Positions 3,577 through 32,993 of a stretch of 53,966 nt of DNA are shown here, piece after piece. The position numbers and the translations under genes are program-made. The DNA comes from a virus: the IMG/VR virus record IMGVR_UViG_3300043639_000022, positions 1-53,966 of that record; one strand, written 5' to 3'. Position 1 is the stretch's first letter, and every line of letters begins with the position of its first letter. The notes beneath the pieces are model-generated. The model was not told the origin of the DNA, ran no database searches, and saw only the letters and a list, made by a program, of their open reading frames with translations.

Positions 3577-4016
3577 ATTGTTGCTCCTATCCAAAGACGG
3601 TACAGACCGCCGAGGTTGTGGTAACGCTTGCCTGTGCTTGGATCAATCTCCGTACGATCAATCGGCTGTTCTCTGCGAGACGTGAAATAGTAGTCGCCAC
3701 TCGGTTGATACATTGCGACCTGAAGAACATCGTCAATGCGCTTCTCAAGTAGCCTCGCATCATCATCAGGACGGCTATCAAATACAACGCGAACCTGAAA
3801 TAAAGGCTCCGAAAAGATTCTCGCCGTACCGAGTCCGTCAACGTCGACGCCACCCATGTAATTGAAAAGGATGTAGGGATACGTTCGATCACTTGGCGTC
3901 TCAGGCGCGTAATCGGCATAGATACGAGTCCCCACTTGAGCCTCAATACCAGTCTCGTCGTGTAGCACGTCATAGAGCCACGCTTTAGCTTGCTGGATTT
4001 CACTAACGTCTCCCAT
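3573..4016 (-). CDS. Tail terminator / tail completion protein (DUF3168-like)
   Basis: 147 aa with the pattern ...VGTRIYADYAPE...YPYILFNYMGG... . Position between the gp10-like gene and the tail tube gene. Confidence 0.5.
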   Translation of the reverse strand: MGDVSEIQQAKAWLYDVLHDETGIEAQVGTRIYADYAPETPSDRTYPYILFNYMGGVDVDGLGTARIFSEPLFQVRVVFDSRPDDDARLLEKRIDDVLQVAMYQPSGDYYFTSRREQPIDRTEIDPSTGKRYHNLGGLYRLWIGATI

Positions 4017-4017
4017 A

Positions 4018-4353
4018 TCATCTCAACACTCGAAGTAATGAGTTGTTTACTTGCTTCTTAGCCGATTCAAACGCTGGGGTGAAGAAAGGTTGAGCATCCA
4101 TGTTGATCGTTCCGTACTCCACGAACGCCGAGTAATCAGCACCGGATTCGATTGTCGCTTTCAGGTCTGCTGATGTTGCTTCGTCTGTCTGTGAAATGTT
4201 GTCGCGCATGTATCCGGTATCAACTGGAGCTAACTGTTGAGCAAGTGATACGCAAGAATCAGCACCTTCATTCAAGACCTCTGCGATGTCCTGTCGCAGG
4301 TGTAGCGATAAGGCTTGCGCGTTGAATCCTGTTTTCTTAATCGTTACGCTCAT
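4018..4353 (-). CDS. HK97 gp10-family head-tail protein
   Basis: Motifs LAPVDTGYMRDNI and ADYSAFVEYGT are typical of the HK97 gp10 family. Confidence 0.65.
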   Translation of the reverse strand: MSVTIKKTGFNAQALSLHLRQDIAEVLNEGADSCVSLAQQLAPVDTGYMRDNISQTDEATSADLKATIESGADYSAFVEYGTINMDAQPFFTPAFESAKKQVNNSLLRVLR

Positions 4354-4742
4354 TTCACAATCTCTGCCGCGACCATCACTAAAGGCGAATACGAATCATC
4401 CATTGTTACCGGACTGAGAAACGTGCGCTCGGCAACGTCTCTAGCGGCAACTACGATCTGTTGATGCGGTTGAATCGCTCGCGTGTTCTCGGTTGCTCTC
4501 ATCGTTAACCTGTGCGTCTGCGTCGTAATCCTTGCCCCTCCAAACTCCAGCATCTTCCGCGTTAGCGGTTCGCAGTAAACTTCAATATCACTTTCAAGGA
4601 TCGTGTCGTCTGCCTCAGTCGTACCACCAAACCCGTCCGGTGTTGACGTGCCTGGTTCGCGTAGTTCGCAGCGATCAAGGAAGTAGTGCATCGCCTCTTC
4701 GACCGCTAATCCCATTTCACTTAAAAGAACTTCTGCGCTCAT
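4350..4742 (-). CDS. Head-tail joining / head closure protein
   Basis: 130 aa. Called from position in the connector module; overlapping stop-start junctions on both sides. Confidence 0.45.
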   Translation of the reverse strand: MSAEVLLSEMGLAVEEAMHYFLDRCELREPGTSTPDGFGGTTEADDTILESDIEVYCEPLTRKMLEFGGARITTQTHRLTMRATENTRAIQPHQQIVVAARDVAERTFLSPVTMDDSYSPLVMVAAEIVK

Positions 4743-5233
4743 GCTCGCACCATTGGAACGCCTGAAGCGTTAACCCTGAGACCGCGTAGTAGTTGATTAA
4801 CCTGTGGCGGCATCGTCCATCCACCACTCTTGAAATCAATCGAGACAGGCCCAATCCTCAAAGAACTCATTGCGCCTGAAAGTGGTTGATCCATCGCCTT
4901 CGATCCCAACAAACTCAGTGCCATCTCGCATGTCGCGTCTTTCACTTGCTTAGGTATCGCAGTCGCGTCGAGATATGAGTAGTAATGACCAGAGTCAGGC
5001 TTCTCGACTCCATAACGCGGCCATTTCAATGCCTGCGTGCTACTCACTCGCGTTCCCAAATAATCAAACCGTTCCAAGTGCGCCGTTGCGAGAATCAAAG
5101 ACTGCTCCTGTTTCTCAGCCGGCGCGTTGTACCAGTTGTCGTTATTGAGGCGATCATCAAAATACGTCTGCGCGTCATCCACGGAGATGTACGAGTTTGA
5201 TGTTTCGCCGCTGATAGTTGAATCAAGTGCCAT
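4739..5233 (-). CDS. Head-tail connector (gp6-like / DnaT_2-type adaptor)
   Basis: N-terminus SYISVDDAQTYFDDR...W...EKQEQSLILATAHLERF.Y.G......QALKWPR matches the connector-adaptor pattern. Confidence 0.6.
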   Translation of the reverse strand: MALDSTISGETSNSYISVDDAQTYFDDRLNNDNWYNAPAEKQEQSLILATAHLERFDYLGTRVSSTQALKWPRYGVEKPDSGHYYSYLDATAIPKQVKDATCEMALSLLGSKAMDQPLSGAMSSLRIGPVSIDFKSGGWTMPPQVNQLLRGLRVNASGVPMVRA

Positions 5234-5236
5234 TGG

Positions 5237-5746
5237 TTAAGCAACTGCAACGAACTGCCACTTCGAGCCGTCTGATGTGAACAATTTGCCGACACCAGTA
5301 GCGTGAGACGTGATAGCCAGCGAGCCCGCCGCTGCTGTTGTAGTAGTTGAGTTGGCTGTGATTGCGGTAGTAAGAGAATAGAATCCTTGACCGCTTGAGA
5401 ACACGACCCCAGGGGATGCCGTCAGCGTCAGCGATACGGCTGTGACGTTACCGCTTGCATCAACGGCGACTCCAGCCAGCGAATCAAGAGCCTGCGTTGC
5501 GGTAGCGGTTGCCTGCGTTACAGCGAGAGTGCCGGCAGTGGGAACCACATTCCATCGAGTAATGACGTTGAATGGCCCGAAGACCGTCGTGCTGCTCGCG
5601 CTAATCGCTGTGGCTCCCAAGCCCACATCGCCCGCTGCGTTGCTAAGGCGAAAAACAATACCCGTCGAGACAGCATCGGCGACGACCGTTAATGCTTCGC
5701 CCGCGGGTAGATAAAAGGTGCGGCTAATTGGCTCAGTTACGTCCAT
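5237..5746 (-). CDS. Ala/Thr/Ser/Gly-rich head-module protein (possible decoration protein)
   Basis: 169 aa, beta-rich composition with a tract TTAITANSTTTTAAAGS. Sits between the capsid gene and the connector genes. Confidence 0.35.
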   Translation of the reverse strand: MDVTEPISRTFYLPAGEALTVVADAVSTGIVFRLSNAAGDVGLGATAISASSTTVFGPFNVITRWNVVPTAGTLAVTQATATATQALDSLAGVAVDASGNVTAVSLTLTASPGVVFSSGQGFYSLTTAITANSTTTTAAAGSLAITSHATGVGKLFTSDGSKWQFVAVA

Positions 5747-5944
5747 TTACTTACCCTTCTTTTCAGTCTTCTTTGCTTCCTGTGCCTGCGCTTCGTGCAA
5801 TATCGCTCGCAGTTTCAAGTGATCCGGTATTGGCCCGACCGCATAGCCAGCATTCCGAAACGCTACTACATCGGCTTGCGGAACATACCTCTCAACTATC
5901 TCGCCGGATTCAGTGAACGCCGGTCCGTGCATTAGTATCGTCAT
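5747..5944 (-). CDS. Small hypothetical protein
   Basis: 65-aa ORF tightly packed in the head module, with a Lys-rich C-terminus. Confidence 0.4.
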   Translation of the reverse strand: MTILMHGPAFTESGEIVERYVPQADVVAFRNAGYAVGPIPDHLKLRAILHEAQAQEAKKTEKKGK

Positions 5945-6705
5945 AAGTTCGGTGCTCCGTTGTGTGACCAGTCTTGAAAGTACTGGAATCGAGGAATAAA
6001 GTTTTTGTCAGGCCACGACACGAGATTCTGAATGTGACCGACGCGAACATGGTTTGCTAGTCGAACTTCCCATCCTGATTCCTCTGCGTTGAGCCAGAAC
6101 CAAACATCTTCATCGATCTGACCGTCTCTCCACTCACCATTGACGTTCGGAACCGCGTTAAACCAGGGCTTAGGTAGTTTCGCCAGTGAAGACACGCGCA
6201 AGATCGTTAGTCCGAAGTGTCCGCAGGTGATCTTTGATAACGGCTTGGATAAATCTAAAAGCGATGGATCACCGGCCCGAATCTTTCCCTCGTTATCACG
6301 AACACCGAACATCGACAAATTCACTTCGCGTCTCACCTGTACCGGAACAATCGCATCTACGTCGGGATTCAATTCCATCAACCCGATCAGAGTCTTTACA
6401 TCTTCCGCCGTAAACACCGAGTCGTAATCGAGGGTAATTGCGTAATCCAGTTCGAGATCCACTGCTTGTTCAAAGAGCAACGTTAACGCCTGGCCCCAAA
6501 AGACCCCTGTATGTGTTGCGACTCCAATCCCTAAAGGCTGAAAGATTTGAGTGATGCAAGACCATGTATCTGTCCATCCCAATCGCGGACAGGACATCAT
6601 GGCGAAGATTCTTAGGACATCTTTCTCTCTTGGAAGCGGAGTGGGTTTAGGGCGTTCCACGATCGCGGATTGCGCCCGCCACCCATCAACAAAGTTTGGA
6701 AGCAT
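5941..6705 (-). CDS. Glycosyltransferase-like protein (GT-A fold candidate) in the head module
   Basis: DxD-like ITLDYDSVF, then CGHFGLTILR, then acidic DEDVWFWLNAEESGWEV...VGH. The order resembles GT2-type motifs. Confidence 0.5.
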   Translation of the reverse strand: MLPNFVDGWRAQSAIVERPKPTPLPREKDVLRIFAMMSCPRLGWTDTWSCITQIFQPLGIGVATHTGVFWGQALTLLFEQAVDLELDYAITLDYDSVFTAEDVKTLIGLMELNPDVDAIVPVQVRREVNLSMFGVRDNEGKIRAGDPSLLDLSKPLSKITCGHFGLTILRVSSLAKLPKPWFNAVPNVNGEWRDGQIDEDVWFWLNAEESGWEVRLANHVRVGHIQNLVSWPDKNFIPRFQYFQDWSHNGAPNL

Positions 6706-6712
6706 AAGTTGA

Positions 6713-6735
6713 GGCGAGAGACCTAGTCTCCCGCC
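6713..6735 (-). other. Stem-loop immediately downstream of the major capsid gene
   Basis: Minus RNA GGCGGGAGAC-UAG-GUCUCUCGCC: 10-bp stem with one G-U pair. No U-tract; the next ATG is 8 nt away. Confidence 0.45.
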
Positions 6736-6741
6736 AATTCG

Positions 6742-7911
6742 TTAGCCAAGTAGAACCGCGATGAAGTCAGGAACCGCAGCCTTCACGCCCCACAGTGCGC
6801 GCAGTTCAAAAGACGACTGCATGTACTGTCCATAGCGAGCGAGCTGGAAGACCAGACCAGAATGCGGATCTTGCACTGTTACCACATCCTCTGCGGAATC
6901 GTCGCCATCATCAGGTGCTCTCATTACGAGGTGCAATGCAGAGCGATGAAGAGCAATGTTACGAGTCGAGGTTGCGGTGGTGGTGATTGCGTGAGTCGCG
7001 GCTGACAATATCCCCTTCAGTCCAGGACGGTTCAGAACCATAGTTCCGCCATCAGCGACCGATGAGTCACCTGTCTTAACCACGTACTTACGAGCGGAGC
7101 CGTCTCCAGTGATTACCACAATGTCACCCGCGACAATGGTTCCGGTTCCTGCCGACGCGAGAGTAAGCGTGGTTGCGCCAACCGCATATCCCGTGTTGTC
7201 GGTAGTGCCGGCTGCCTGAGTGCCCGCCGTGACTGTGGTGATCGGATAAGAGTTGTGGACTTCAAAGCCCATCAATTCCCCAATACTGCCCTTGCGAAGC
7301 GTCTCACTTGAGCCTGCTTCATTGACCTTGAAGAGGTTCGCCTGGACACCGCGAAGGTTAGCCATAGCCGCCGCACCTACAACGAGGTGGCGATCAAGTG
7401 CTGGTGTTCCGTTGTCATCGAGAATGCGAGCAACGCCCGCCACTTCGGTGTAGTTTCCCGATGTAGCAAATGGCGTAGTCGATGCCGCACCGAAAGCAGC
7501 CGAAGCACCTTTGTACGCGGCCACCCACAACGAGTTCTCAATCTCGTTGACAAGCGTTCGCATAGCCTGTTGGAGTGTTTGGCTGATGATGTCCTGATAT
7601 GGCGCAATGTCGCCATTGCTCAAGGCACGTCTCTCTTCACCGGTCCAGTTCCAAGAGACTTTCTTGAGGTTGTCCATCACGAGACTATCTGCGGCCTGGA
7701 TAATGTCAGTGCCAGCAGGTGAAGTCGCGGCTGGACTTACTGATCCAGACGAGAGAGTCGGAACAACTGAATAGTTGACTGTTTGGTTGTATCCGGCACG
7801 ATTGGCGGAAGCGTTTTTGTGACAGGCGGGAATAAAGCCGACCAGTTCACGTCCTACGATATTCGCGCTATCTTGAAGCGTCGGAATAATCGCTGTCAGA
7901 GTGTTAGACAT
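6742..7911 (-). CDS. Major capsid protein (P22 coat-like)
   Basis: 389 aa following the scaffold gene. N-terminal LTAIIPTLQDSANIVGRELVGFIPA resembles the P22-coat family signature. Confidence 0.7.
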   Translation of the reverse strand: MSNTLTAIIPTLQDSANIVGRELVGFIPACHKNASANRAGYNQTVNYSVVPTLSSGSVSPAATSPAGTDIIQAADSLVMDNLKKVSWNWTGEERRALSNGDIAPYQDIISQTLQQAMRTLVNEIENSLWVAAYKGASAAFGAASTTPFATSGNYTEVAGVARILDDNGTPALDRHLVVGAAAMANLRGVQANLFKVNEAGSSETLRKGSIGELMGFEVHNSYPITTVTAGTQAAGTTDNTGYAVGATTLTLASAGTGTIVAGDIVVITGDGSARKYVVKTGDSSVADGGTMVLNRPGLKGILSAATHAITTTATSTRNIALHRSALHLVMRAPDDGDDSAEDVVTVQDPHSGLVFQLARYGQYMQSSFELRALWGVKAAVPDFIAVLLG

Positions 7912-8010
7912 TTGGGAAATCTCCTAAAGTTAAGGGTTAATGAGCCATCTCATCACTGACCTCATCAGTGGAGAAATTCCGCACAACGCCTGACGTTCTG
8001 CGATTAGTTT

Positions 8011-8763
8011 TCAATCTTTTAATGTGCCGCCTTCAGCAAAGAACTTGGAACTTTCAGCGGGCGTCAGAGCCTGCCATTCGGTGCGAGAAATCGTTTTCTT
8101 ACCCGTGCTTTTTGTTTGGGTATTGCCCTGAGCACCACTACCGCCCGCGCCGGTTGCTGTGTAAAACTTTGGCCGCATCTCTTTGTAGAGAGTCTCAAAG
8201 AACGTTTTGGGTGTTACCCCACTAGCCGGATCGCCGTCTTCATCGAGGACAACAATCTTTCCGTCGTCGTCCAACTGAAACCGCTTCGCTGTGTCGAGCA
8301 TCACCAGGTCAAGGTCTTCAGGGAATATCCCTGCCTTCACCGCAATGTCTTTGAGCGGAACTGTCAACCGGTAATGCCTGAGTTGCTGTTCGTACTCACC
8401 GAGCTTGCTTGTTAGAGGTTGCTTCTCAGCCTCGAACCGCTTGCGCTCTTTGTCAAGAAGCTTGTTGAAACGCTCTTCAGCCGCCTTGTCGTCGGTGCTG
8501 GTGTCCTTGCCCTTGTTGGCTCGGAGGGTCAGCAGTTCTTCAATCTCGTCGTCGTCGACTTCAGCGAGCTTCTCGTAGCGTTTAAGAGCCGACTTCGACT
8601 CGTTCAGTTTTCCGAGAATCTCTTGATTCTTTTTCTTGAGTCCTGATGCTCTGAACTCTGAATACTTGTCAGGGTCAAGTTGAAACTTTCCATCTTTCTC
8701 GGTGTAGACCGCCTTTAGCGAGTCGTCTAATCCCTCAAGGGATTCAACTACTATCTCTGGCAT
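8011..8763 (-). CDS. Scaffolding protein
   Basis: 250 aa, highly charged with coiled-coil composition. Sits directly upstream of the capsid gene. Confidence 0.6.
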   Translation of the reverse strand: MPEIVVESLEGLDDSLKAVYTEKDGKFQLDPDKYSEFRASGLKKKNQEILGKLNESKSALKRYEKLAEVDDDEIEELLTLRANKGKDTSTDDKAAEERFNKLLDKERKRFEAEKQPLTSKLGEYEQQLRHYRLTVPLKDIAVKAGIFPEDLDLVMLDTAKRFQLDDDGKIVVLDEDGDPASGVTPKTFFETLYKEMRPKFYTATGAGGSGAQGNTQTKSTGKKTISRTEWQALTPAESSKFFAEGGTLKD

Positions 8764-8809
8764 TCAATTCTCCTCTGCTTGGCTTTGGAGCCTCCCGACT
8801 TTGCCGGGG

Positions 8810-8843
8810 AAATAAAAATCCCGTCCAGATCACTCCAGACGGG
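8810..8843 (-). terminator. Intrinsic terminator between the head-morphogenesis and scaffold genes
   Basis: Minus RNA CCCGUCUGGA-GUGA-UCUGGACGGG followed by AUUUUUAUUU. The two non-canonical pairs are G-U only in the minus-strand RNA. Confidence 0.6.
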
Positions 8844-8880
8844 AAATAGTCAACCACATTTTTAGAAGATAAGTTTTAGC

Positions 8881-9774
8881 TCACTGCAACTCTACCGATC
8901 CGCCATATCGATCCTGACCACCAACTATTCCCGTGAACAGGTCAGACGTGGCGAACTGTGCGCCTTCCACGTCAAATTCAAACTCACAACGGCAGTTGTT
9001 CATGCACTGCAAAGACCCAATCTCATCCAACTGATCGAGCGGCACAAAACCTTCGCCCGCTGCCGCTACGCACTCATCACAGCTTCTTTCGTCTTCAGCA
9101 CAGACCCGACGACCTAGCCTCACGCCTTCGTCAAACTCTCGCGCCATGACGTTGTTTTCAAGCGTCGACCATGCCGCATCTGGATACATCTCGGAGCGGT
9201 TAATAATCTGTCCACCTATTAAGTCAGCGGCTTGACTACCGATCGACACCGGCACGTCACGCCCGACTACCTCAATCACTGCTCGTTTAGCGACTGCTTC
9301 TGCTTCGCCTGGAGCAACAGTCAGCAATGCTCTTGAGAGGCTTTGACGTAGTGCGGCCTGTGCGTCTGGATACTCACTAGCGATCTTGTTGGCTATCGCC
9401 TGCACGGCTCGTAATGAGGTACGTGTCTCACGCTCGAAGTTGGCGAGATATTCCAGTTCACTCGATACCTTCTGATTGATACGCGCCCAGCGTTCAGCGT
9501 TCATCTGTGGTTCACCGCCATAGGCCACAACACCAGAGATCGCATGCCAGGCTGAAACCTTATCGCGCATGAAAGCAAAGAACTCTTCTGCTCGCACTAA
9601 GGCTCTAAACTCTTCAGCGGTAATGATCGAAGAGTCGATAACCTTGAGGGCTTCAACCTTGACTAGCTTTCGCTCAGTCTCAATGTAGTCATCGATGACC
9701 TTACGGATTGCCGCAGGAGAGACGGGGCGACCCCGTTCGTCTTCATACCGGCGTTGAATTGGATCCCAAATCAT
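8881..9774 (-). CDS. Head morphogenesis / minor capsid protein (SPP1 gp7 / Mu F family)
   Basis: Follows the portal gene. C-terminal Cys motif CDECVAAAG...LQCMNNCRCEFEF is typical of the Mu F family. Confidence 0.7.
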   Translation of the reverse strand: MIWDPIQRRYEDERGRPVSPAAIRKVIDDYIETERKLVKVEALKVIDSSIITAEEFRALVRAEEFFAFMRDKVSAWHAISGVVAYGGEPQMNAERWARINQKVSSELEYLANFERETRTSLRAVQAIANKIASEYPDAQAALRQSLSRALLTVAPGEAEAVAKRAVIEVVGRDVPVSIGSQAADLIGGQIINRSEMYPDAAWSTLENNVMAREFDEGVRLGRRVCAEDERSCDECVAAAGEGFVPLDQLDEIGSLQCMNNCRCEFEFDVEGAQFATSDLFTGIVGGQDRYGGSVELQ

Positions 9775-11267
9775 GCTGCGGGTTTCTGTTGAGCATTAAA
9801 CAGGTTCGAGACTGACGCAGGCGCACTCTTCAAAGCCTTCTGAGCGAGTGTGGGAATAGCCGAAGCCTGAGCGGTCTGCTTGGCTTCCTTAACCTTTGCC
9901 ACCTCATCATCGACGGATACGTCCTCAGACAGTAAGCCAGTCTCACGAAGCATTCCAAGCACAACCGTCAGCCAGCTCTCAAGTGAGAAGTCGTTCGACC
10001 GTACCGCTGAGAGTAATACCGTCAAGTGTTGCGGTGTCAGTGCTAGATTTTCTTCCTTCACTCCTAACTTGATTGAGCCGCCCGCTTCCGTCCCTAATCC
10101 TAGATATTCAGCATGGTATGAAAGCGCGAGTTCGATACAGTCCTTCTCGGACTGTGCCATCGTCGCCAACTCACTATGCTTTTCTTCTTTGTCCTGCTTC
10201 TTTTCAGTAGCGGTGATATTCGTGTCTGCCCGTTGAGTGAGCGTCGATAGGCCCATCATGCCCATGCGCTGCTCGATGTCTAACAAGTGAGAGCGACCAA
10301 CTGACATCGCACCATCACCACGGACTTCGAGCCACTTCCAGTCGCCGCCTTCAGGTGCGTCGAGGGTGCTCTTTACTCCTACCTCAACCTCTGCCGGATC
10401 TTGATTGATGTTCGAGCCAATGCGTACCAGCATCGGGACACGTGTAACGTGCAGAATGTTTTCCTGATCCGATGAGTTCTGCCAGTGTGAGATGTTCAAA
10501 TAAGCGAGATCGAGTAATGCTGGAGCCTTGCCGATTTCACCAGATACAGCGACAGGGATACGGGTTAGCGTAGTCGTTCCGCCGTCCTCCCATATCATCT
10601 TGTCTTCGTCTTGGATAGCCTTCTCGTTTAAGCGGTAGAGATCCCAACTAACCACTCCGTTCTCTTTACGGAAGGTGCGGTACTTACAGACTTCTTTCTC
10701 ACCATACGACCCATCGGGCTCAGTCGACTTCTCTTCAAACGTTATTAGCGTGAACTCTTGCTTGCCGTTGATTCTCGCCCTGCGCCAGTTGACTGCTTGA
10801 TCCCCTTTGTAGCTTACCCAATACGGTCGACGACCACTCGCCTTCTCATCGGCATACGTCGCGCCATCCGGCAGTGCCGTATCCATGTCCACCAGGATGA
10901 ACGACCATCCCTCAAACTGATCGGTGAAGTGTCGCTTGGTAAATACGTCGAGATTATTACCTGCCAGATCAACATCTTCCATCTGATCCTGAATAGGTTG
11001 CGGGACATCATCCTCCAGCACGATCGGGTCATTGAACACCATGCCAACAAGTGATTGGACGGTTCTCAGGTAAGCGTTGAAGAAGACAGTTCGATTCAGG
11101 CGACAGCGATACTCAATCTCAGGCTCTCTCTTTTCCTTCGGTAGATAGGCAGTGCCGGCGTCACGCATTAAGGGCGTTCCGCCTGAGACATCACGGACGA
11201 CCTTGATAGCCATTGCGGTTGAGCAATGCACCGAGTTCTTGAAGTTTGGGAGATTAGGATCAGCCAT
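9771..11267 (-). CDS. Portal protein
   Basis: About 498 aa directly after TerL. Likely start MADPNLPNF at 11267, just after the TerL stop at 11272. N-terminus YLPKEKREPEIEYRCRLNRTVFFNAYLRTV resembles DUF4055-type portals. Confidence 0.75.
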   Translation of the reverse strand: MADPNLPNFKNSVHCSTAMAIKVVRDVSGGTPLMRDAGTAYLPKEKREPEIEYRCRLNRTVFFNAYLRTVQSLVGMVFNDPIVLEDDVPQPIQDQMEDVDLAGNNLDVFTKRHFTDQFEGWSFILVDMDTALPDGATYADEKASGRRPYWVSYKGDQAVNWRRARINGKQEFTLITFEEKSTEPDGSYGEKEVCKYRTFRKENGVVSWDLYRLNEKAIQDEDKMIWEDGGTTTLTRIPVAVSGEIGKAPALLDLAYLNISHWQNSSDQENILHVTRVPMLVRIGSNINQDPAEVEVGVKSTLDAPEGGDWKWLEVRGDGAMSVGRSHLLDIEQRMGMMGLSTLTQRADTNITATEKKQDKEEKHSELATMAQSEKDCIELALSYHAEYLGLGTEAGGSIKLGVKEENLALTPQHLTVLLSAVRSNDFSLESWLTVVLGMLRETGLLSEDVSVDDEVAKVKEAKQTAQASAIPTLAQKALKSAPASVSNLFNAQQKPAA

Positions 11268-16692: not shown

Positions 16693-17147
16693 GACTTCAG
16701 AGACGCGAGCTTTCTCTGCAAGATGTCTACTTGCGCTTCCAGAACGCCTATTTGCCCCTTGAGTTCGGCAATGGTTACGTCCCGTGCTTTGATTTCTAAT
16801 TGGAGAGTAAGGTTCAGGGTGGTGATTTCGTGGAACTGTCTTTCCTGCTCACTGAAGCGTATTTGCAGTCGCTTGAAAGAATCGGAGAGTACGAGTATTT
16901 CTTCGCCGCGCTGCTTGTAGAGCTTCTCCCAGCCGTCTGCGGTTTCTCTTAGTTGCGTCTGGTTCTGTTTGGCGAGTTCAAAGTTCTGCTTGCGGTATAA
17001 CAACGCTCCCAGCGCAAACAGTACAAGAGCAGGTATTGTCGCCTTGAGAATTGGTCCCACGTATAACCAAAGATTTTCCATTGTTACCCCAAACACAATG
17101 CCGCTTCGCTGGGAGTGAGGAAACGGAATTGCGATTGCATCTGCCAT
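16689..17147 (-). CDS. Membrane-anchored coiled-coil protein (i-spanin-like architecture)
   Basis: One TM segment (LKATIPALVLFALGALLY) followed by about 100 aa of heptad-rich helix. Alternative start MENLW. Confidence 0.4.
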   Translation of the reverse strand: MADAIAIPFPHSQRSGIVFGVTMENLWLYVGPILKATIPALVLFALGALLYRKQNFELAKQNQTQLRETADGWEKLYKQRGEEILVLSDSFKRLQIRFSEQERQFHEITTLNLTLQLEIKARDVTIAELKGQIGVLEAQVDILQRKLASLKS

Positions 17148-17153
17148 GACGAA

Positions 17154-17315
17154 TTACTTCTTCTTACTCTGCGTCAACGCACTCGACGCGATGCCGTTAA
17201 TTACTTTCAACTGTCCCACTTCAGCGTCACGATAGATGTAGGGCGAGTTACTTTGCACTCGCCTTATGTCCTCTAACGCTTGAGTGAGCGTCTTGATCTT
17301 CTGAGCGTCTGTCAC
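17154..17315 (-). CDS. Small hypothetical protein (53 aa, GTG start)
   Basis: Manual translation VTDAQKIKTLTQALEDIRRVQSNSPYIYRDAEVGQLKVINGIASSALTQSKKK. GTGA start-stop overlap with the upstream gene. Confidence 0.3.
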   Translation of the reverse strand: MTDAQKIKTLTQALEDIRRVQSNSPYIYRDAEVGQLKVINGIASSALTQSKKK

Positions 17316-17500
17316 GCCTGCGACCCCATGTCTTCTTCGGTGATCTGTTTCGTCTCCGCGACCTTTGCCCGAGCCGCGGCGATGATTTCCTCATCCGTGC
17401 GCGTGTCGCCCTTCCTGAGTTCACCAATCAACGCAATCACTAAAGGCGAAAGAGTGTTGATGGCCGTTAAGCCGGATAGAATTTTGTCTTCTGCTGGCAT
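17312..17500 (-). CDS. Hypothetical protein
   Basis: 62-aa ORF. Confidence 0.4.
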   Translation of the reverse strand: MPAEDKILSGLTAINTLSPLVIALIGELRKGDTRTDEEIIAAARAKVAETKQITEEDMGSQA

Positions 17501-17970
17501 TATTTCACCTTCATTGTTTGCGCAATCAGAATTGCTGAGTTAATCGCCGTGACCGCCGACTGGATGAGGATATCGATCCGGTCGTTGCCAACCCTTGTGT
17601 GTACGAGTTGCTGCGCCGCTTTCGTTAGTAAGTCGATTACCGCTTGCCCGCTCATGCCAGGCTGTAATTGTGCGGCGACTTCCACGGCTTCAGATAGATA
17701 CTCGTTTGCTTCGTGGACGCCCGTCGCCACCTTTTGACGGGTAGCGATAGCACCGGGTGAACCGACAGCACCGTATACGGCAGAGCGGTACAGTTCACGA
17801 TTCGATTTGGCTGCGGTATTGAGAATTGATGCGGCTTGATCGACTTTGACTTTGACCTTGTGAACATCATTCGATGAACACGCGAAGCCGTAACCGCTAT
17901 AGGCTATCGCTGCGATCAGTAACAAGACTGCAATTTGCTTTCGTTGAATTCCTAGATACAAGTAGACCAC
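17500..17970 (-). CDS. Putative lipoprotein
   Basis: Signal-like LLLIAAIAYSGYGFAC followed by an all-helical mature region. Cys after a hydrophobic stretch. Confidence 0.45.
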   Translation of the reverse strand: MVYLYLGIQRKQIAVLLLIAAIAYSGYGFACSSNDVHKVKVKVDQAASILNTAAKSNRELYRSAVYGAVGSPGAIATRQKVATGVHEANEYLSEAVEVAAQLQPGMSGQAVIDLLTKAAQQLVHTRVGNDRIDILIQSAVTAINSAILIAQTMKVK

Positions 17971-17983
17971 CCGCCTTTCCGCC

Positions 17984-18199
17984 TTAGAAGGCTCTGCGCT
18001 GATTCAACCACTCTGCAAAGGAGTGGCCTTTTGCAAAGTTTCGTTCCTCTAACTTTCGTTCTGTTTCGTAAAGTCTGAGCAGTAGTTCCTGCTCTAGTGC
18101 TGAATGTGAGTCGCAGCACTGGCATCGGGGAGTGAAAACAATGCTACCTACTGTCGGGGTTTCAAATCCGGTCTTAGGTTGTAATCGCTTGCCGGTCAT
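17984..18199 (-). CDS. Hypothetical protein
   Basis: 71-aa ORF containing CQCC. Confidence 0.4.
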   Translation of the reverse strand: MTGKRLQPKTGFETPTVGSIVFTPRCQCCDSHSALEQELLLRLYETERKLEERNFAKGHSFAEWLNQRRAF

Positions 18200-18453
18200 T
18201 TCGGATCACCCGTTACATCCTTTGTCACCGTGATTGTTGTTTCAGTGTGCTTCGCGGGCAAAGGTGACTGTTTCAAATATGACGCGATCGCCACGAGCGC
18301 AGACGCTCCACAAGCGGTTGAAATGTTCTTCCAGCCAGCTTTTGAGTAGATGTCGAACGTGTTGGGATTGACGACGATCAACAAGACGCCGGAGGCCGCC
18401 GCGCCTATTGCGCCGCTTGCTAGTCCATACAGCCAGTTCTTGAAGTCGTCCAT
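18196..18453 (-). CDS. Small two-TM membrane protein (holin-like candidate)
   Basis: 85 aa, GLASGAIGAAASGVLLIVV and ACGASALVAIASYL hydrophobic segments. Confidence 0.4.
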   Translation of the reverse strand: MDDFKNWLYGLASGAIGAAASGVLLIVVNPNTFDIYSKAGWKNISTACGASALVAIASYLKQSPLPAKHTETTITVTKDVTGDPK

Positions 18454-18487
18454 GCAAGCATTCTTGCTTAATTGCTGGATTTATTTA

Positions 18488-18516
18488 TTGAGGCTTTGGG
18501 TTTTGCGGAGTAGAAT
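18488..18516 (+). promoter_or_regulatory. Sigma70-like promoter TTGAGG-17-TAGAAT
   Basis: ttgagg (18488-18493), 17-nt spacer, tagaat (18511-18516), in an otherwise minus-strand region. Confidence 0.4.
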
Positions 18517-18522
18517 GAAGAC

Positions 18523-18648
18523 CACTGCCGGTTCAAATCCAGCCGGACGGTAAGGCGTCCGACGCATCTGCGGTGGAAGCAGAGAATCGAGGTCATTCCT
18601 CGACCTTACAAATAGGGCTGGGCTATACCGCTCGGCCCTTTTCTTCTT
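18523..18648 (+). ncRNA. Candidate phage sRNA of about 125 nt (promoter, three hairpins, terminator)
   Basis: Hairpins CGGACG-GTAAGG-CGTCCG (18544-18561) and TCGAGG-TCATT-CCTCGA (18587-18603), then a terminator. The 5' part contains a T-loop-like GGTTCAAATCC. No ORF. Confidence 0.4.
18615..18648 (+). terminator. Intrinsic terminator on the plus strand
   Basis: GGGCTGGGC-TATACC-GCTCGGCCC followed by TTTTCTTCTT. The two wobble pairs are G-U only in plus-strand RNA. Confidence 0.5.
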
Positions 18649-18809
18649 CATTCAAACGCACGAAACCCGCTGGGCTTGAGACCAACGGGTTCCACACTCT
18701 CAAATCTAAATGTTTTGTTTTTGAACCGACCGCTAACGAACTCTCCTGCCTCAATCAATTTGGTATTGCGCTCCTAAGAGCAAAAGCTAATCTACTCCCG
18801 TGCTCGTTC

Positions 18810-19448
18810 TTATTTCTGTCCTAAAGGCGTATCGACCATCGAATAACCTATCGGCCATTGATACACGGCTTGCTCGTCGCAAGGGCTGACCGACAACGTA
18901 GTGATCTCAATGGTGATCTTTCCCTCTGCGCCCGTCTCTTTGTGGTAGAACTCCACTATCCCATAGTCAGGTGACTGCCAACTCTCGCCACCGTTATCGA
19001 GTCGTCTACCGTACACCGTCACGCCCGCGATTTCCTTCGTCCCGATGTAACTGGCAAGGCTTGTGTAGTGCGCTGGCGTCAAATGCTGAACAGGTAAGCC
19101 CGCTTCCCGCATCTTCTGAATCTCTTTCCCTGCGTGCATGACGAAAAACGTTCCTATGCCTGGACGGATGATGAACTCCATCACATCGCTTCGACCTGTC
19201 AATAAACTGTGCCGCTCTTGCACGCGCCGAATTGCGCCGTCTGCCCCGACGTAGGTGTTCCAATCTTCAGTCTCCAGCACTTGACCTTGCGCGTTCGTCT
19301 TAACCGAGTGCTGTTTGACCAAGTGGGGAACGAAACCGCCAAGCGTGGTAGGTGGCAGTCGGTAATGAAGGCGAGTGACGGCGTAACCGAGTCCCGTTAC
19401 CGCCACCGTCAATACTAAGACCTTGAGTGTCATTTTTAGTCGTTTCAT
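18810..19448 (-). CDS. Exported or membrane-anchored protein of unknown function
   Basis: Likely start MKRLKMTLKVLVLTVAVTGLGYAV at 19448 with AAGGA 7 nt upstream. The longer track ORF would overlap the upstream gene. Confidence 0.5.
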   Translation of the reverse strand: MKRLKMTLKVLVLTVAVTGLGYAVTRLHYRLPPTTLGGFVPHLVKQHSVKTNAQGQVLETEDWNTYVGADGAIRRVQERHSLLTGRSDVMEFIIRPGIGTFFVMHAGKEIQKMREAGLPVQHLTPAHYTSLASYIGTKEIAGVTVYGRRLDNGGESWQSPDYGIVEFYHKETGAEGKITIEITTLSVSPCDEQAVYQWPIGYSMVDTPLGQK

Positions 19449-19462
19449 TTTCAATCCTTTCG

Positions 19463-19747
19463 TCAGCCAGTACAGCCAATGCAGCAAGCAGGGCATTTGG
19501 CAAATCCACCCGCGCAACCATAATGATTCGTGCCCGCACATGGATAGTGACATTGCCAGTGGGTACAAGCACTGTCGGTACAATGGTTCGTACAGCCCTC
19601 AAAGCAACCTATAAAGTCCATGTCGCACTGTCCATAACAGAAGAACTGGTTACACGCGGCTTTTCCTGACCGTGATCCGAAGTAGGCTCCCAGCGAGAAT
19701 CCGAGTGCCAGGATGATGATTAGGATAATCCTTCTATGTGTTTTCAT
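19463..19747 (-). CDS. Cysteine-rich exported peptide (94 aa; 14 Cys and 4 His in the last 64 residues)
   Basis: MKTHRRIILIIILALGFSLGAYFGSRSGKAA then CNQFFCYGQCDMDFIGCFEGCTNHCTDSACTHWQCHYPCAGTNHYGCAGGFAKCPACCIGCTG. AGGAAA lies upstream of the ATG. Confidence 0.55.
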   Translation of the reverse strand: MKTHRRIILIIILALGFSLGAYFGSRSGKAACNQFFCYGQCDMDFIGCFEGCTNHCTDSACTHWQCHYPCAGTNHYGCAGGFAKCPACCIGCTG

Positions 19748-19764
19748 CTAGTGTTTTCCTTTCG

Positions 19765-20694
19765 TTATGCGTCTTCGTCGTCTTCATCACGTTGATGTTT
19801 GCCCCATGACTCAGGACGTGGTGGAAACCATCGGGTTAGCAGCGATGGCAACTTGCCGCGGCGATTGTCCTGCTTGCCTTCGCCCGCGTCGGTCCGACTT
19901 AGCATCTTCCGACTTGGTTCAAGCATGTACTCGACTCGTTCGTCCAGTTCAGGATCGCTCATAAAGTAGCCGCGTGTCTGAAGCCATGTGTACAGATCAT
20001 CCTCGGCAATCGTTCCGCCTTCGTCTACCGCCTGAAGTATTACCTCGCAGTCGTCCGCAATCGTCCGGTTCTTTTGCCAGAAGGCTTGGGCCGCGTGGTT
20101 CTGCAACATCGCCCGTAGAAATCTGGCCGTCAGTGGAACGCTTTCCTCAAACCGCTTCAGTGTGTCGACATAGAGTTGCAGAAACTCTTGAACCTCGGCA
20201 GTGTGAATAACTTCGAGTTCGGTTTTCTCTTTTCCTTCGCTTCGTTTGATCCGAGAGATTTCACGTCGCGCATGTTTCACGGTGAAGTGATCGTGATCGT
20301 CTTCGGCCTTCTGCAAAACTGCCTCTTGCTGTGCTGGTTTAAGGCCTGCTACTTCCGCTTGAATCGAGTAGTCAACCAGATCCGTGTCCCGACGTCGGGA
20401 CAGGTCGAGATTTTGCGCGACAAACACATAGTTCCTTAGCGTCTTCTCGGCCTTGCCTGTTGCTTCGATTGCTTGCGTGTACTTTTCGCCGTACTGGTGC
20501 TCGCCATAGCGAATCCAATCACCGATCCAAAACTGAATTCCTTTACCCGCTTTTCGCAATGCACCGCCTAAATCCTGCCAACGCTCGAACTCCATCCCTT
20601 CAGGAATAAGAAGTCCGGTGGTGCTGAATGTGCATTCTGGAAAGTTTAGTAGCTCAACATCTGTTTCAGGGGCTTCCAGTAAAGCTGTCGTCAT
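19765..20694 (-). CDS. Hypothetical protein (possible DNA-binding)
   Basis: 309 aa with IQFWIGDWIRYGEHQYGEKYTQAIEATG...TLRNYVFVA. Family not identified. Confidence 0.5.
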   Translation of the reverse strand: MTTALLEAPETDVELLNFPECTFSTTGLLIPEGMEFERWQDLGGALRKAGKGIQFWIGDWIRYGEHQYGEKYTQAIEATGKAEKTLRNYVFVAQNLDLSRRRDTDLVDYSIQAEVAGLKPAQQEAVLQKAEDDHDHFTVKHARREISRIKRSEGKEKTELEVIHTAEVQEFLQLYVDTLKRFEESVPLTARFLRAMLQNHAAQAFWQKNRTIADDCEVILQAVDEGGTIAEDDLYTWLQTRGYFMSDPELDERVEYMLEPSRKMLSRTDAGEGKQDNRRGKLPSLLTRWFPPRPESWGKHQRDEDDEDA

Positions 20695-21242
20695 TTGTCG
20701 TTTTCTCCCACGTAGTTATCCGGCCACCAATTAAACATCGGGTAGATTTCGATATGTGTGAGGATTTCGTTGGGCAACAAGTGGGAGCGAGGACGAATCA
20801 AGCCATCCTCATCAACATAGACTTCCTCAGTTGACAGCAACGCAATACAGTTCGCCTGTGCAACTGGAAGATCGTAGCCTTCCAAGAACGCCCTTCGCTC
20901 TTGAATGGTGTTGTCGGTCTTGCCGCTGGCCCAATGCACAAGAGCATGGCAGTTCGGGCAGAGTCGCACGATATTCTCAATCCACGACTCTCCATCCTTC
21001 GCTACCGGCTTTATGTGGTGACGGGTAAGCACGGGAGGGAAGTACTTCTCACACGCGAAGCATCGCCCCCGTCCATACCTCTGATTTAGCCGTCTGGTTG
21101 TTGCCTCAGAGCGTGTGCGGCCTCGAACTAGACCACGATGATACTTACGATGCCAGTCTGTTACGGACAAGATAGGTCTCCCACTACCTATATTTCGACT
21201 CTTGAGAATTGGTGAGTAAGTCGATTGATTTGTTGCCAGCAT
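20691..21242 (-). CDS. HNH endonuclease
   Basis: CFACEKY...RHHIKPVAKDG...NIVRLCPNCHALVH. Confidence 0.8.
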   Translation of the reverse strand: MLATNQSTYSPILKSRNIGSGRPILSVTDWHRKYHRGLVRGRTRSEATTRRLNQRYGRGRCFACEKYFPPVLTRHHIKPVAKDGESWIENIVRLCPNCHALVHWASGKTDNTIQERRAFLEGYDLPVAQANCIALLSTEEVYVDEDGLIRPRSHLLPNEILTHIEIYPMFNWWPDNYVGENDK

Positions 21243-21272
21243 TTTACTTGATTTGGCCCATGCTACCTACAA

Positions 21273-21665
21273 CTATTTCGTCGCTCCGATTGCTTCTTCA
21301 ACCCATTTCAAAGCCTGTCCACTGGTTACATGGTTCGGAGCGATTCTGATAACCGTGTAGCCCAGCAATGCCGCTGAGTTGTACTTCTCCATGTCTCGCA
21401 GGATGCCGCTGACGCTCGAGTGGCCTTGCTTACCTTTAGCGAACAAACCGCCCTCGAACTCGATCAGCACCTTTGTATTCTTGACTCGATAGTCAGACCG
21501 CCACTTGCGTGGAGATGCGAAGATGAATTCAGTCTCAACCTGGATGCCGCTTAACTTCATCTGCACTTCAAAGTCCGACTTGTAATCCTTCTTGACAGTC
21601 TTGCTTTGCGCTTCCGGCGCACCTATCAAGGCTCGGTACTGACTGAGAGACGTTGATTGACTCAA
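21273..21665 (-). CDS. PD-(D/E)XK nuclease, Vsr/DUF559-like
   Basis: FIFASPRKWRSDYRV...VLIEFEGGLFAKGKQGHSS..GILRDMEKYNSAALLGYTVIRI. Confidence 0.45.
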   Translation of the reverse strand: MSQSTSLSQYRALIGAPEAQSKTVKKDYKSDFEVQMKLSGIQVETEFIFASPRKWRSDYRVKNTKVLIEFEGGLFAKGKQGHSSVSGILRDMEKYNSAALLGYTVIRIAPNHVTSGQALKWVEEAIGATK

Positions 21666-21880
21666 CTCTTCTGCTCCTGTTCAAACTCGATCAGTTCTGC
21701 GACTGCGTTCATCAAGGTTCGTTCAGCGTGTCCCGCTCCGGGATGTTTGTAATAACCCTTCGCCGCGTTGATTACCGCGTCCCACAGTTGAGCCTTCTCC
21801 GCAAACACTTTCATGTTGGCTTCAAACGTTTCTTGCGCCGACTTGTAATCAGGGGAGTATTCGACCTTGCCAACTGTCAT
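21662..21880 (-). CDS. Hypothetical protein
   Basis: 72-aa ORF with overlapping junctions. Confidence 0.4.
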   Translation of the reverse strand: MTVGKVEYSPDYKSAQETFEANMKVFAEKAQLWDAVINAAKGYYKHPGAGHAERTLMNAVAELIEFEQEQKS

Positions 21881-22107
21881 CGCTTCCGCTCCTGTTCGGC
21901 CTTGTCCGCATCAAGTATGTCTTGCGCTACATGTCCCGCAATCATGTGCGTTCGTACTATCTGCTCAACGGCTTGCTCAAGTTCTCCGTTCTTATAGAAA
22001 CGGCTCGCGCAATTGCCTGTGATGTGGGTGGTTCCGAATAAGTAGCGTGTCTCGCAAGCCCTACGAAGATCATCTATCTCAGTAACCGTGTACGCCCGCT
22101 CGCTCAA
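21877..22107 (-). CDS. Hypothetical protein
   Basis: 76-aa ORF (TTG start in the track). Confidence 0.35.
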   Translation of the reverse strand: MSERAYTVTEIDDLRRACETRYLFGTTHITGNCASRFYKNGELEQAVEQIVRTHMIAGHVAQDILDADKAEQERKR

Positions 22108-32140: not shown

Positions 32141-32344
32141 ATGAAACGATTAGCTTTAATCCTTGTGTTGCTTTCCCTGATCTCTATCCCCGTGCTTGCC
32201 GGTGAGACCGAAGGACCACCGTCGCCGCCGCAACCACCGCCCTGCCGTGAAGACTGCGGTAACGGCTTAGTGAGCATCCCGCCCGGATCAAACTTTGGGC
32301 AGATCGTCGCCGCTATCGTGCTCGCCATTCTTGGCAGACGGTAG
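32141..32344 (+). CDS. Small exported Pro-rich peptide with C-terminal PEP-CTERM-like anchor
   Basis: MKRLALILVLLSLISIPVLA / GETEGPPSPPQPPPCREDCGNGLVSIPPGSNFGQIVAAIVLAILGRR. AGGAG lies 9 nt before the ATG. Confidence 0.55.
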   Translation: MKRLALILVLLSLISIPVLAGETEGPPSPPQPPPCREDCGNGLVSIPPGSNFGQIVAAIVLAILGRR

Positions 32345-32714: not shown

Positions 32715-32993
32715 ATGACAATCACCTACGCAATCGAAACTGAACCAGTCAAGACGGATCCAGAAATGATCAAGGTATATCCAGATTGTGAAGCCTGTCG
32801 CGGAACAGGGCAGCGATACAACGAAGACGAGGGTGCGGATTATCCCTGCCGCAAGTGCGACGGTGAAGGGTGGATCGCGGTTGAGGTTTGCGAAGCGTGT
32901 TTACAGGACGAGACCGGTTGCAAGTGTCTCGATGAAGCAGACGATGGCTTGAGTGAAATGGAACGACTCGGAGAAGGAAGGTACTTCGGATGA
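32715..32993 (+). CDS. DnaJ-type Cys-rich zinc-finger protein
   Basis: CEACRGTGQ and CRKCDGEGW (CxxCxGxG repeats). Confidence 0.5.
   Translation: MTITYAIETEPVKTDPEMIKVYPDCEACRGTGQRYNEDEGADYPCRKCDGEGWIAVEVCEACLQDETGCKCLDEADDGLSEMERLGEGRYFG

Follow-up and report, generated by a model that had tools for sequence, protein, structure and literature searches.

A mobile two-gene phage cassette predicted to encode an exported 14-cysteine mini-protein and an extracytoplasmic partner

Bacteriocin-immunity systems are usually laid out as a gene for a small exported peptide followed by a gene for a membrane-anchored extracytoplasmic protein. In the Bacillus prophage SPbeta, sublancin 168 (SunA), a secreted antimicrobial peptide of small size and high Cys content, is paired with the immunity protein SunI, which a single N-terminal helix holds in the membrane; sublancin has five Cys and a double-glycine leader, and its operon also codes for an ABC exporter dedicated to it, for an S-glycosyltransferase, and for two thiol-disulfide oxidoreductases. 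The colicin M immunity protein, Cmi, is periplasmic and N-terminally anchored. The heat-stable enterotoxin STa of Escherichia coli, encoded on a mobile element, is a Sec-exported pre-pro-peptide with a long pro-region, whose mature part is oxidized in the periplasm, has six Cys in 18-19 residues, and targets animal guanylate cyclase C. The chlamydial OmcA, a lipoprotein of ~90 amino acids (aa) with a leader and roughly 14 Cys, acts via extracytoplasmic disulfides and is encoded upstream of the Cys-rich OmcB, while the copper storage protein Csp1 is an exported four-helix bundle with a high Cys content. The window analyzed here, the whole stretch of 53,966 nucleotides (nt) of IMG/VR virus record IMGVR_UViG_3300043639_000022, contains a two-gene cassette in which a gene for a predicted exported 14-Cys protein is directly followed by a gene for a larger, predicted extracytoplasmic partner. 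Judged by sequence comparison, its Cys framework matches no described family, and the two genes form a real, conserved orphan module coding for extracytoplasmic proteins.

The gene for the exported 14-Cys protein occupies positions 19463..19747 of the minus strand (stop codon included) and encodes 94 aa. According to the listing and translation of open reading frames (ORFs), its ATG at 19747 is the first start after the upstream stop, and sequence reading places a Shine-Dalgarno-like AAGGA (19757..19761, minus strand) 9 nt 5' of it. The protein, MKTHRRIILIIILALGFSLGAYFGSRSGKAA-CNQFF...CCIGCTG, is divided by hydropathy and sequence reading into a leader (residues 1-31; 19655..19747, minus strand) and a mature domain of 63 aa with 14 Cys (residues 32-94; 19466..19654, minus strand). 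The leader starts with MKTHRR, in which KTHRR forms a basic n-region, and continues with an 18-residue core rich in Ile and Leu (mean Kyte-Doolittle hydrophobicity of 2.8 over these residues) and then SRSGKAA, closing on the small-residue site G-K-A/A; it would serve as a Sec-type signal peptide, if cleaved, or else as a membrane anchor at the N-terminus. Besides its 14 Cys (22%), the mature domain contains four His, nine Gly, and nine aromatic residues (14%), a fifth His being located in the leader, and the residues between successive Cys number 4,3,6,3,3,4,4,3,7,6,2,0,2. Its Cys density is an outlier in the window: when the 295 open segments that span at least 63 codons in any of the six frames are compared, the runner-up reaches 8 Cys per 63 residues. 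An earlier note on this DNA, made from the letters alone, had pointed to a hydrophobic leader, a stretch with 14 Cys and four His, and a plausible ribosome-binding site for this ORF, all of which are borne out, with 63 residues after the leader and AAGGA 9 nt upstream of the ATG.

Two further lineages of the cassette were found. A 2.4-kb, phage-like NCBI contig (L001) carries a 95-aa orthologue of the Cys protein at 198-485, together with a partner relative (P0001) of 96% aa identity. An exhaustive HMMER scan of 1.84 billion cluster representatives returned one true homologue of the Cys protein, P0004 (97 aa; E 5e-10, 38% identity), which is encoded at 1851-2144 of a 3.5-kb Logan contig (L002). 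All 14 Cys and several Gly of the window protein align with P0004, their spacing differing by two single-residue indels, and the number of Cys is even in both subfamilies. The three members of the Cys-protein family share a basic n-region, a hydrophobic core of 15-18 residues (mean Kyte-Doolittle hydrophobicity of 2.2-2.8), and a small-residue site before the first Cys; aromatic residues make up 12-14% of the mature domain across members. The orthologous genes are likewise preceded by motifs resembling ribosome-binding sites, GAGAGGAAAA in L001 and AAGGAGG in L002. The lipobox [LVI][ASTVI][GAS]C is absent at the first Cys, which is preceded by K-A-A in the window copy and L001 and by T-P-S in P0004, and a lipoprotein was ruled out on this ground. 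A cytochrome c was also considered and rejected, the single CX4CH motif of the window copy not being kept in P0004.

Comparison of the window with L001 shows mature domains of 100% aa identity that differ at five nt, all five of the differences being synonymous (nonsynonymous divergence, dN, of 0 and synonymous divergence, dS, of 0.16; P ~2e-4 under neutrality). The leader, by the same comparison, is fast-evolving (dN 0.18), and the partner, which is under purifying selection, has a dN/dS of 0.087. Because the changes in the mature domain of L001 are synonymous only and a distant homologue with 14 aligned Cys exists, we conclude that the Cys ORF is, as far as sequence comparison can tell, a real gene under purifying selection. 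The opposing view is that it is a chance ORF, or that the real gene is an upstream-extended partner frame of 228-257 aa, and in its favor the Cys ORF was left uncalled in three of four assemblies, namely the IMG contig, L001 (NCBI), and a near-identical 53,869-bp contig (L004; ORF at about 10948-11232) in the Logan assembly of another sequencing run. In place of the Cys ORF, the IMG and NCBI callers chose a longer partner of 228 and 226 aa, respectively, by upstream extension, and the partner frame of the window is indeed open upstream to 19583; only the Logan contig L002 has the Cys ORF called. Against this view, the five substitutions that are silent in the Cys frame cause aa changes when read in the antisense frame or in the upstream part added to the partner frame. 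Neither the antisense frame nor the alternative frames are conserved in L002, nor is the extension: the partner frame of that contig is open for only 16 codons 5' of its ATG. The 14 aligned Cys of the distant homologue, moreover, come with a strong AAGGAGG site of their own. The sequence comparisons thus in effect refute the non-gene view, to which we assign a negligible probability. The frame disruption in relatives that would have pointed to a non-coding stretch was not seen, the frame being conserved in two independent loci, and the comparisons with L001 and P0004 support the proposal that the ORF codes for a genuine, selected, exported Cys-rich peptide.

The partner gene (18810..19448, minus strand) encodes 212 aa, and its ATG at 19448 lies exactly 14 nt past the TGA of the Cys gene. 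A Shine-Dalgarno-like AAGGA (19455..19459, minus strand) is situated inside this spacer, 6 nt 5' of the partner ATG. The protein begins with a hydrophobic helix ending in a conserved G-Y-A, followed by an acidic domain of ~180 aa, and its conserved motifs include IIRPG.G.[FY]F..H and PVQHL. A basic n-region and a hydrophobic core are found at the N-termini of both proteins of the cassette, and the partner helix agrees with the earlier description of a membrane-anchored or exported 212-aa protein starting 14 nt downstream of the Cys ORF. The partner has one Cys in the window copy and none in L002. As no Cys is conserved, the partner is predicted to be neither an oxidoreductase nor disulfide-linked to the peptide, and both roles were ruled out.

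A partner homologue is located directly downstream of the Cys gene in all three lineages. The spacer in L001 is of the same 14 nt as in the window, and in L002 a homologue of 221 aa (28% identity, pairwise E 1e-25) starts 20 nt 3' of P0004, with GAGGAG in the spacer. From this gene order, the two genes appear to be a conserved unit across deep divergence, and the synteny in all three lineages (93% nt identity to one relative; 38% and 28% aa identity to the other) identifies the downstream exported or anchored protein as a true partner, as had been suspected.

Neither protein has a valid match in Pfam, PHROGs, NCBIfam, or PADLOC, even at E <= 10 for all members, nor in sequence and profile searches of the PDB, where an alignment to the PHD finger of AIRE (E 2.4) was dismissed as noise. 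The profile searches against families of bacteriocins, metallothioneins, and peptides synthesized ribosomally and modified post-translationally (RiPPs) that the earlier note had called for gave no valid family match. A literature search on comparable phage Cys-rich exported peptides and on the CXXX-repeat family found nothing relevant. The search for further relatives covered ~15 billion proteins (with the partner, only by word-indexed search) in addition to DNA pattern scans and ended with three cassette lineages: the window, L001, and L002. A word-indexed protein search of 5.8 billion clusters gave no match to the peptide query and no further member, and the profile search recovered P0004 alone. 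The HMMER scan also returned a repeat protein, P0005, which proved spurious. Both proteins or their alignments, back-translated and scanned against viral, genome, and metagenome contigs, gave no match, and tblastn of phage and plasmid collections gave no further member. A strict degenerate DNA pattern (G-C-x2-G-C-x3-C-x-D-x2-C-x3-Q-C) had no match in metagenome and viral contigs, and its single match, in Pandoraea, was set aside as chance. A looser pattern matched >119 viral loci; every one was either an off-frame simple repeat of the (CCxG)n type or a long repeat protein of Cys, Gly, and Ser, and a partner homologue was present at none. In the IMG/VR contigs L006 (about 9500-10270), L008, and L066, we observed long proteins (152-545 aa) in which a non-repetitive N-terminal domain is followed by extended Cys/Gly/Ser-rich repeats of the CxxxC type; these are unrelated to the cassette.

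The rarity of the cassette may be partly an annotation artefact, because gene callers skip the Cys ORF. More generally, since standard callers dropped it in three of the four assemblies, families of this kind are under-counted in protein databases and need to be sought at the DNA level.

The block shared by the window (18832..19708, minus strand) and L001 (240-1116) is aligned by blastn over 877 bp without gaps at 92.7% nt identity. It ends exactly at the partner stop codon and fades inside the leader, and a tblastx comparison of L001 with the window detected no similarity beyond the block, even at the protein level. Because the shared block is bounded by the partner stop and the leader, and the backbones are unrelated, the cassette appears to behave like a movable, moron-type accessory module. 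A relative of the gene downstream of the cassette in L001, at 57% identity, occurs in an IMG/VR viral contig of 73 kb (L124), in which a gene for a 1942-aa protein (3997-9825) directly follows the 402-aa gene shared with L001, a gene order that supports a phage origin of L001. The 10.8 kb of L124 that we read, comprising ~2 kb upstream and 8 kb downstream of the relative, contain other small genes upstream and no cassette. In L002, the cassette is flanked by a methyltransferase gene and a divergent amidohydrolase gene, a cellular-looking setting with no phage gene in view. The genomes sharing the cassette are similar in GC content (0.52-0.53), and within the window the cassette (0.50-0.53) is close to the phage as a whole (0.516). 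The occurrence of the same cassette in two unrelated phage-type backbones and one cellular-looking context sustains the suggestion that the pair is accessory cargo, and there is good support for viewing these extracytoplasmic proteins as a mobile accessory pair.

The window itself is an IMG contig of a temperate tailed phage, with identified genes for the large terminase, portal, P22-like coat, scaffolding, and tail proteins, an ERF recombinase, and a tyrosine integrase. The cassette lies ~3 kb downstream of the integrase gene on the same strand and ends a tightly spaced string of genes for a phrog_503 protein, an HNH endonuclease, and a 309-aa LmbU-family-like protein. On the 3' side, the partner gene is followed by a 355-bp gap and then by small membrane-protein genes, a metallophosphoesterase gene, and the terminase genes. 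The earlier placement on the lysogeny side of the genome is therefore only approximate: the integrase is near, but the cassette is also upstream of the small membrane-protein and terminase genes. There is no canonical minus-strand terminator after 18810 and no sigma-70-like site on the minus strand between 17000 and 22000, and because neither a promoter nor a terminator of this strand was found near the cassette, its co-transcription with the upstream genes is likely. The 309-aa protein (19765-20694, minus strand) matches the model of LmbU-family transcriptional regulators over residues 26-164 (E 2.8e-27; 95.8 bits against a cut-off of 125) and might, by this similarity, be a phage transcription activator; its gene is not linked to the cassette in L001 or L002. 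No tRNA genes were detected in the phage, and the cyanobacterial palindrome HIP1 is not enriched in it. Its closest relatives among phages lie too far away, and their hosts are too varied, to indicate the host or its envelope type, and the protein clusters looked up for the flanking genes are all unnamed singletons.

Several other elements were observed around the cassette and elsewhere in the window. The 355-bp gap holds a candidate small RNA (sRNA) of ~125 nt (18488-18650, plus strand), oriented convergently to the cassette and equipped with a promoter-like TTGAGG-17-TAGAAT (18488-18516). It contains two hairpins and a terminator composed of a 10-bp GC-rich hairpin (18614-18639) and then TTTTCTTCTTC; its fold has a z-score of -3.7, and it is not conserved in L001. 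No Rfam family matched the candidate at gathering score, the sub-threshold likeness to SorY and mmgR being driven by the terminator, and no tRNA or tmRNA was detected in it, although its 5' part contains the tRNA T-loop-like GGTTCAAATCC. In the 3' part of the Cys gene, an antisense sigma-70-like site, TTGGCA-16-CATAAT (10/12 matches; 19497-19524, plus strand), is kept in L001 (451-424, minus strand), a retention that may simply reflect the conserved coding sequence. Beyond the gap, the minus strand between 17500 and 18453 contains three ORFs: one of 85 aa with two hydrophobic stretches (18196-18453), one of 71 aa, and one of 156 aa (17500-17970) with an N-terminal hydrophobic segment, an Ala-rich region, and a weak Lpp-like match (E 0.38); these ORFs could be a lysis cassette, without family support. 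Farther along, between the genes of a tetratricopeptide repeat (TPR) protein and a small putative repressor, a 67-aa ORF (32141-32344, plus strand) would encode a protein with a signal peptide of textbook form (MKRLALILVLLSLISIPVLA) and a middle part rich in Pro, closed at the C-terminus by a hydrophobic, sorting-signal-like stretch with GRR at its end; it has no NCBIfam match, overlaps a minus-strand ORF, and is putatively coding only. A 92-aa ORF (32715-32993, plus strand) at the start of the rightward block is among the next-highest in the window in Cys, with 8 per 63 residues, and has CxxCxGxG repeats of the DnaJ or anti-TRAP zinc-finger type with weak NCBIfam matches (E 1e-3).

As to function, we tentatively rank first, at a probability well short of even, a secreted, disulfide-rich toxin accompanied by a periplasmic, immunity-like partner that would protect the lysogen, because the gene order and the topology of the partner match those of bacteriocin and toxin pairs with periplasmic, N-terminally anchored immunity proteins. 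The leader of the pre-protein would carry the mini-protein across the cytoplasmic membrane, most likely via Sec. In the oxidizing extracytoplasmic space, the 14 invariant Cys of the exported, acidic, aromatic-rich mini-protein of 63 residues would most plausibly form seven disulfides and yield a compact, very stable scaffold, as suggested by the even Cys count, the conserved Gly-Cys turns, and the oxidizing compartment. The partner would be translated from the same mRNA, and its ~180-aa domain would work with the mini-protein in the same compartment. The mini-protein could then be a bacteriocin-like or other target-binding toxin that is exported and released from the producer, possibly at phage lysis, with the partner as the cognate periplasmic immunity or neutralizing protein guarding the lysogen. 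Disulfide formation, the physical interaction of the two proteins, the toxic activity, and the timing of expression are all steps that we infer.

Several observations weigh against a toxin and its protector. Searches of Pfam, NCBIfam, PHROGs, PADLOC, and the PDB revealed no homology to a family of bacteriocins, toxins, or immunity proteins. Far from diversifying, the mature domain is extremely well conserved, and it is acidic or neutral (net charge of -3 in the window and -0.3 in the other subfamily), which is atypical for bacteriocins. In a diderm host, export by a Sec leader alone would take the peptide no farther than the periplasm, with no release route apparent. The search of 17000-22000 on the minus strand revealed no promoter-like site of the cassette's own that would serve its expression in the lysogen. 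The structure predictions are of little help: AlphaFold for the Cys protein together with P0004 reached a predicted local distance difference test (pLDDT) score of 47 and is confident for the helix of residues 2-24 only, and AlphaFold2 for the partner, from a single sequence, is a failed model with a pLDDT of 42, in which the first 30 residues form a confident helix and the rest is mostly beta at unusable confidence.

Other functions could be served by the same pair of proteins. Envelope-acting protection, such as superinfection exclusion or receptor masking, in which a mini-protein anchored through an uncleaved leader or bound to an envelope component would, with its partner, block a phage receptor, DNA entry, or an envelope enzyme to the benefit of the lysogen, is unlikely but deserves weight. 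It would suit two proteins that are both predicted to be extracytoplasmic with N-terminal hydrophobic helices, a peptide that is acidic and not membrane-lytic, and a cassette that is accessory cargo in two different phage backbones; G20-x3-G24 and F17-S/T18 are kept in the leader at 38% identity, which together with G-Y-A in the partner helix would fit retained, associating transmembrane segments. However, the leader diverges fast between close relatives, as cleaved signal peptides do, the copy in L002 lies among cellular-looking genes away from any visible phage gene, and neither PHROGs nor PADLOC revealed a likeness to known exclusion proteins. A metal-binding peptide, also raised by the earlier note, would in this compartment be an extracytoplasmic metal-thiolate protein, its 14 thiols binding Cu(I), Zn, or Cd, possibly exported folded by twin-arginine translocation (Tat), with the partner as metallochaperone or receptor. 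The 22% Cys and many i/i+4 spacings are consistent with such a protein, as are the four His of the window copy, and a Tat-exported, Cys-rich copper store exists in Csp1 of methanotrophs. The leaders of the window copy (T-H-R-R-I-I-L) and P0004 (S-V-R-R-L-L-M) contain twin arginines, and c-regions are basic in all three members; the near-identical L001 copy, however, has R-P-R-M in place of RR, and the strongly hydrophobic leader cores (2.2-2.8 on the Kyte-Doolittle scale) are Sec-like. In the mature domain, the His of the window protein are not kept in P0004, a conserved Met or His motif is lacking, the Cys are mostly spaced by 3-7 residues and not arranged in CxC or CxxC clusters, and the 12-14% of aromatic residues and the conserved Gly-Cys turns suit a disulfide scaffold better. 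With no Pfam match of the three members to metallothionein or Csp/DUF326 models at E <= 10, this metallothionein-like reading is disfavored, and we regard it as improbable.

The two remaining proposals fare worse. The pair might be a lysis-timing component, with peptide and partner as periplasmic antiholin or lysis regulators comparable to T4 RI, which the peptide resembles in size and topology; membrane-type ORFs are present downstream on the same strand (18196-18453 and 17500-17970). These ORFs are separated from the cassette by the 355-bp gap, however, are not linked to it in L001 or L002, and have no holin or spanin family match, and the L002 copy lies outside any visible phage context, which leaves such a role very unlikely. 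The suggestion of a modified-peptide precursor, for example a CXXX-repeat target of a radical S-adenosylmethionine (SAM) enzyme with the partner as processing factor, draws on the sole score obtained from the family libraries, that of the window protein with TIGR04117 (Cys-Xaa-Xaa-Xaa repeat radical SAM target; E 2.3e-6). At 27.6 bits, this match is far below the cut-off of 50, and P0004 does not match the model at E <= 1. No maturase (radical-SAM/SPASM, lanthipeptide, cyclodehydratase, or other) was detected in the neighboring ORFs and the scanned phage ORFs of at least 243 aa, nor in the visible flanks of L001 and L002, contigs of just 2.4 and 3.5 kb. What precedes the mature domain is an export signal and not a RiPP recognition leader, and the only conserved neighbor is itself exported and has neither a cofactor motif nor a conserved Cys; a RiPP precursor is accordingly disfavored and, in our estimate, extremely unlikely.

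Returning to the exported toxin with its protecting partner, a bolder formulation is that the cassette founds a new class of phage-mobilized, Sec-exported, seven-disulfide mini-proteins with knottin-like stability, a novel Cys framework, and a periplasmic partner that neutralizes or presents them, acting as a new bacterial toxin or receptor blocker and invisible in protein catalogues due to gene callers that skip it. We consider this proposal distinctly doubtful. If a stable toxin or receptor binder were indeed carried on phages in this way, it would add a new scaffold to the few Cys-dense exported peptides of bacteria and a new kind of lysogenic-conversion cargo. The value of the cassette is that of a well-defined, testable orphan module, resting on three lineages.

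As with sublancin and SunI, a small, Cys-rich, exported peptide is borne on a phage and accompanied by a partner with an N-terminal helix, but the peptide of the cassette has 14 Cys, its leader is of the Sec type, and its partner is much larger; the cassette shares no sequence similarity with sublancin and includes none of the additional genes of the sublancin operon. The partner resembles Cmi in its N-terminal helix and extracytoplasmic domain and in the position of its gene, adjacent to and co-oriented with that of the effector; it differs in having ~212 aa, no conserved Cys, and no detectable homology to Cmi, and the putative effector is a mini-protein of 63 residues rather than a large colicin. 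STa is likewise a mobile-borne, leader-bearing peptide with a Cys-dense mature part, yet it has no dedicated partner gene, whereas the cassette does, and the 14-Cys protein has no sequence similarity to it. Among proteins with a high Cys content, Csp1 shares export with the window protein, which is distinguished from Csp1 and the bacterial metallothioneins by the lack of a Pfam match, by its richness in aromatic residues and Gly, and by a twin-arginine that is not kept in L001. Proteins of the TIGR04117 family are also small, with many Cys about four residues apart, whereas the window protein scores below the cut-off and has irregular Cys spacing, an export leader, and no radical-SAM neighbor. 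The layout is also that of OmcA and OmcB, in which a protein of ~90 aa with roughly 14 Cys is encoded just upstream of a second envelope protein; unlike that pair, the Cys protein of the cassette has no lipobox and no Pfam match, and its partner is without conserved Cys, whereas OmcB is Cys-rich.

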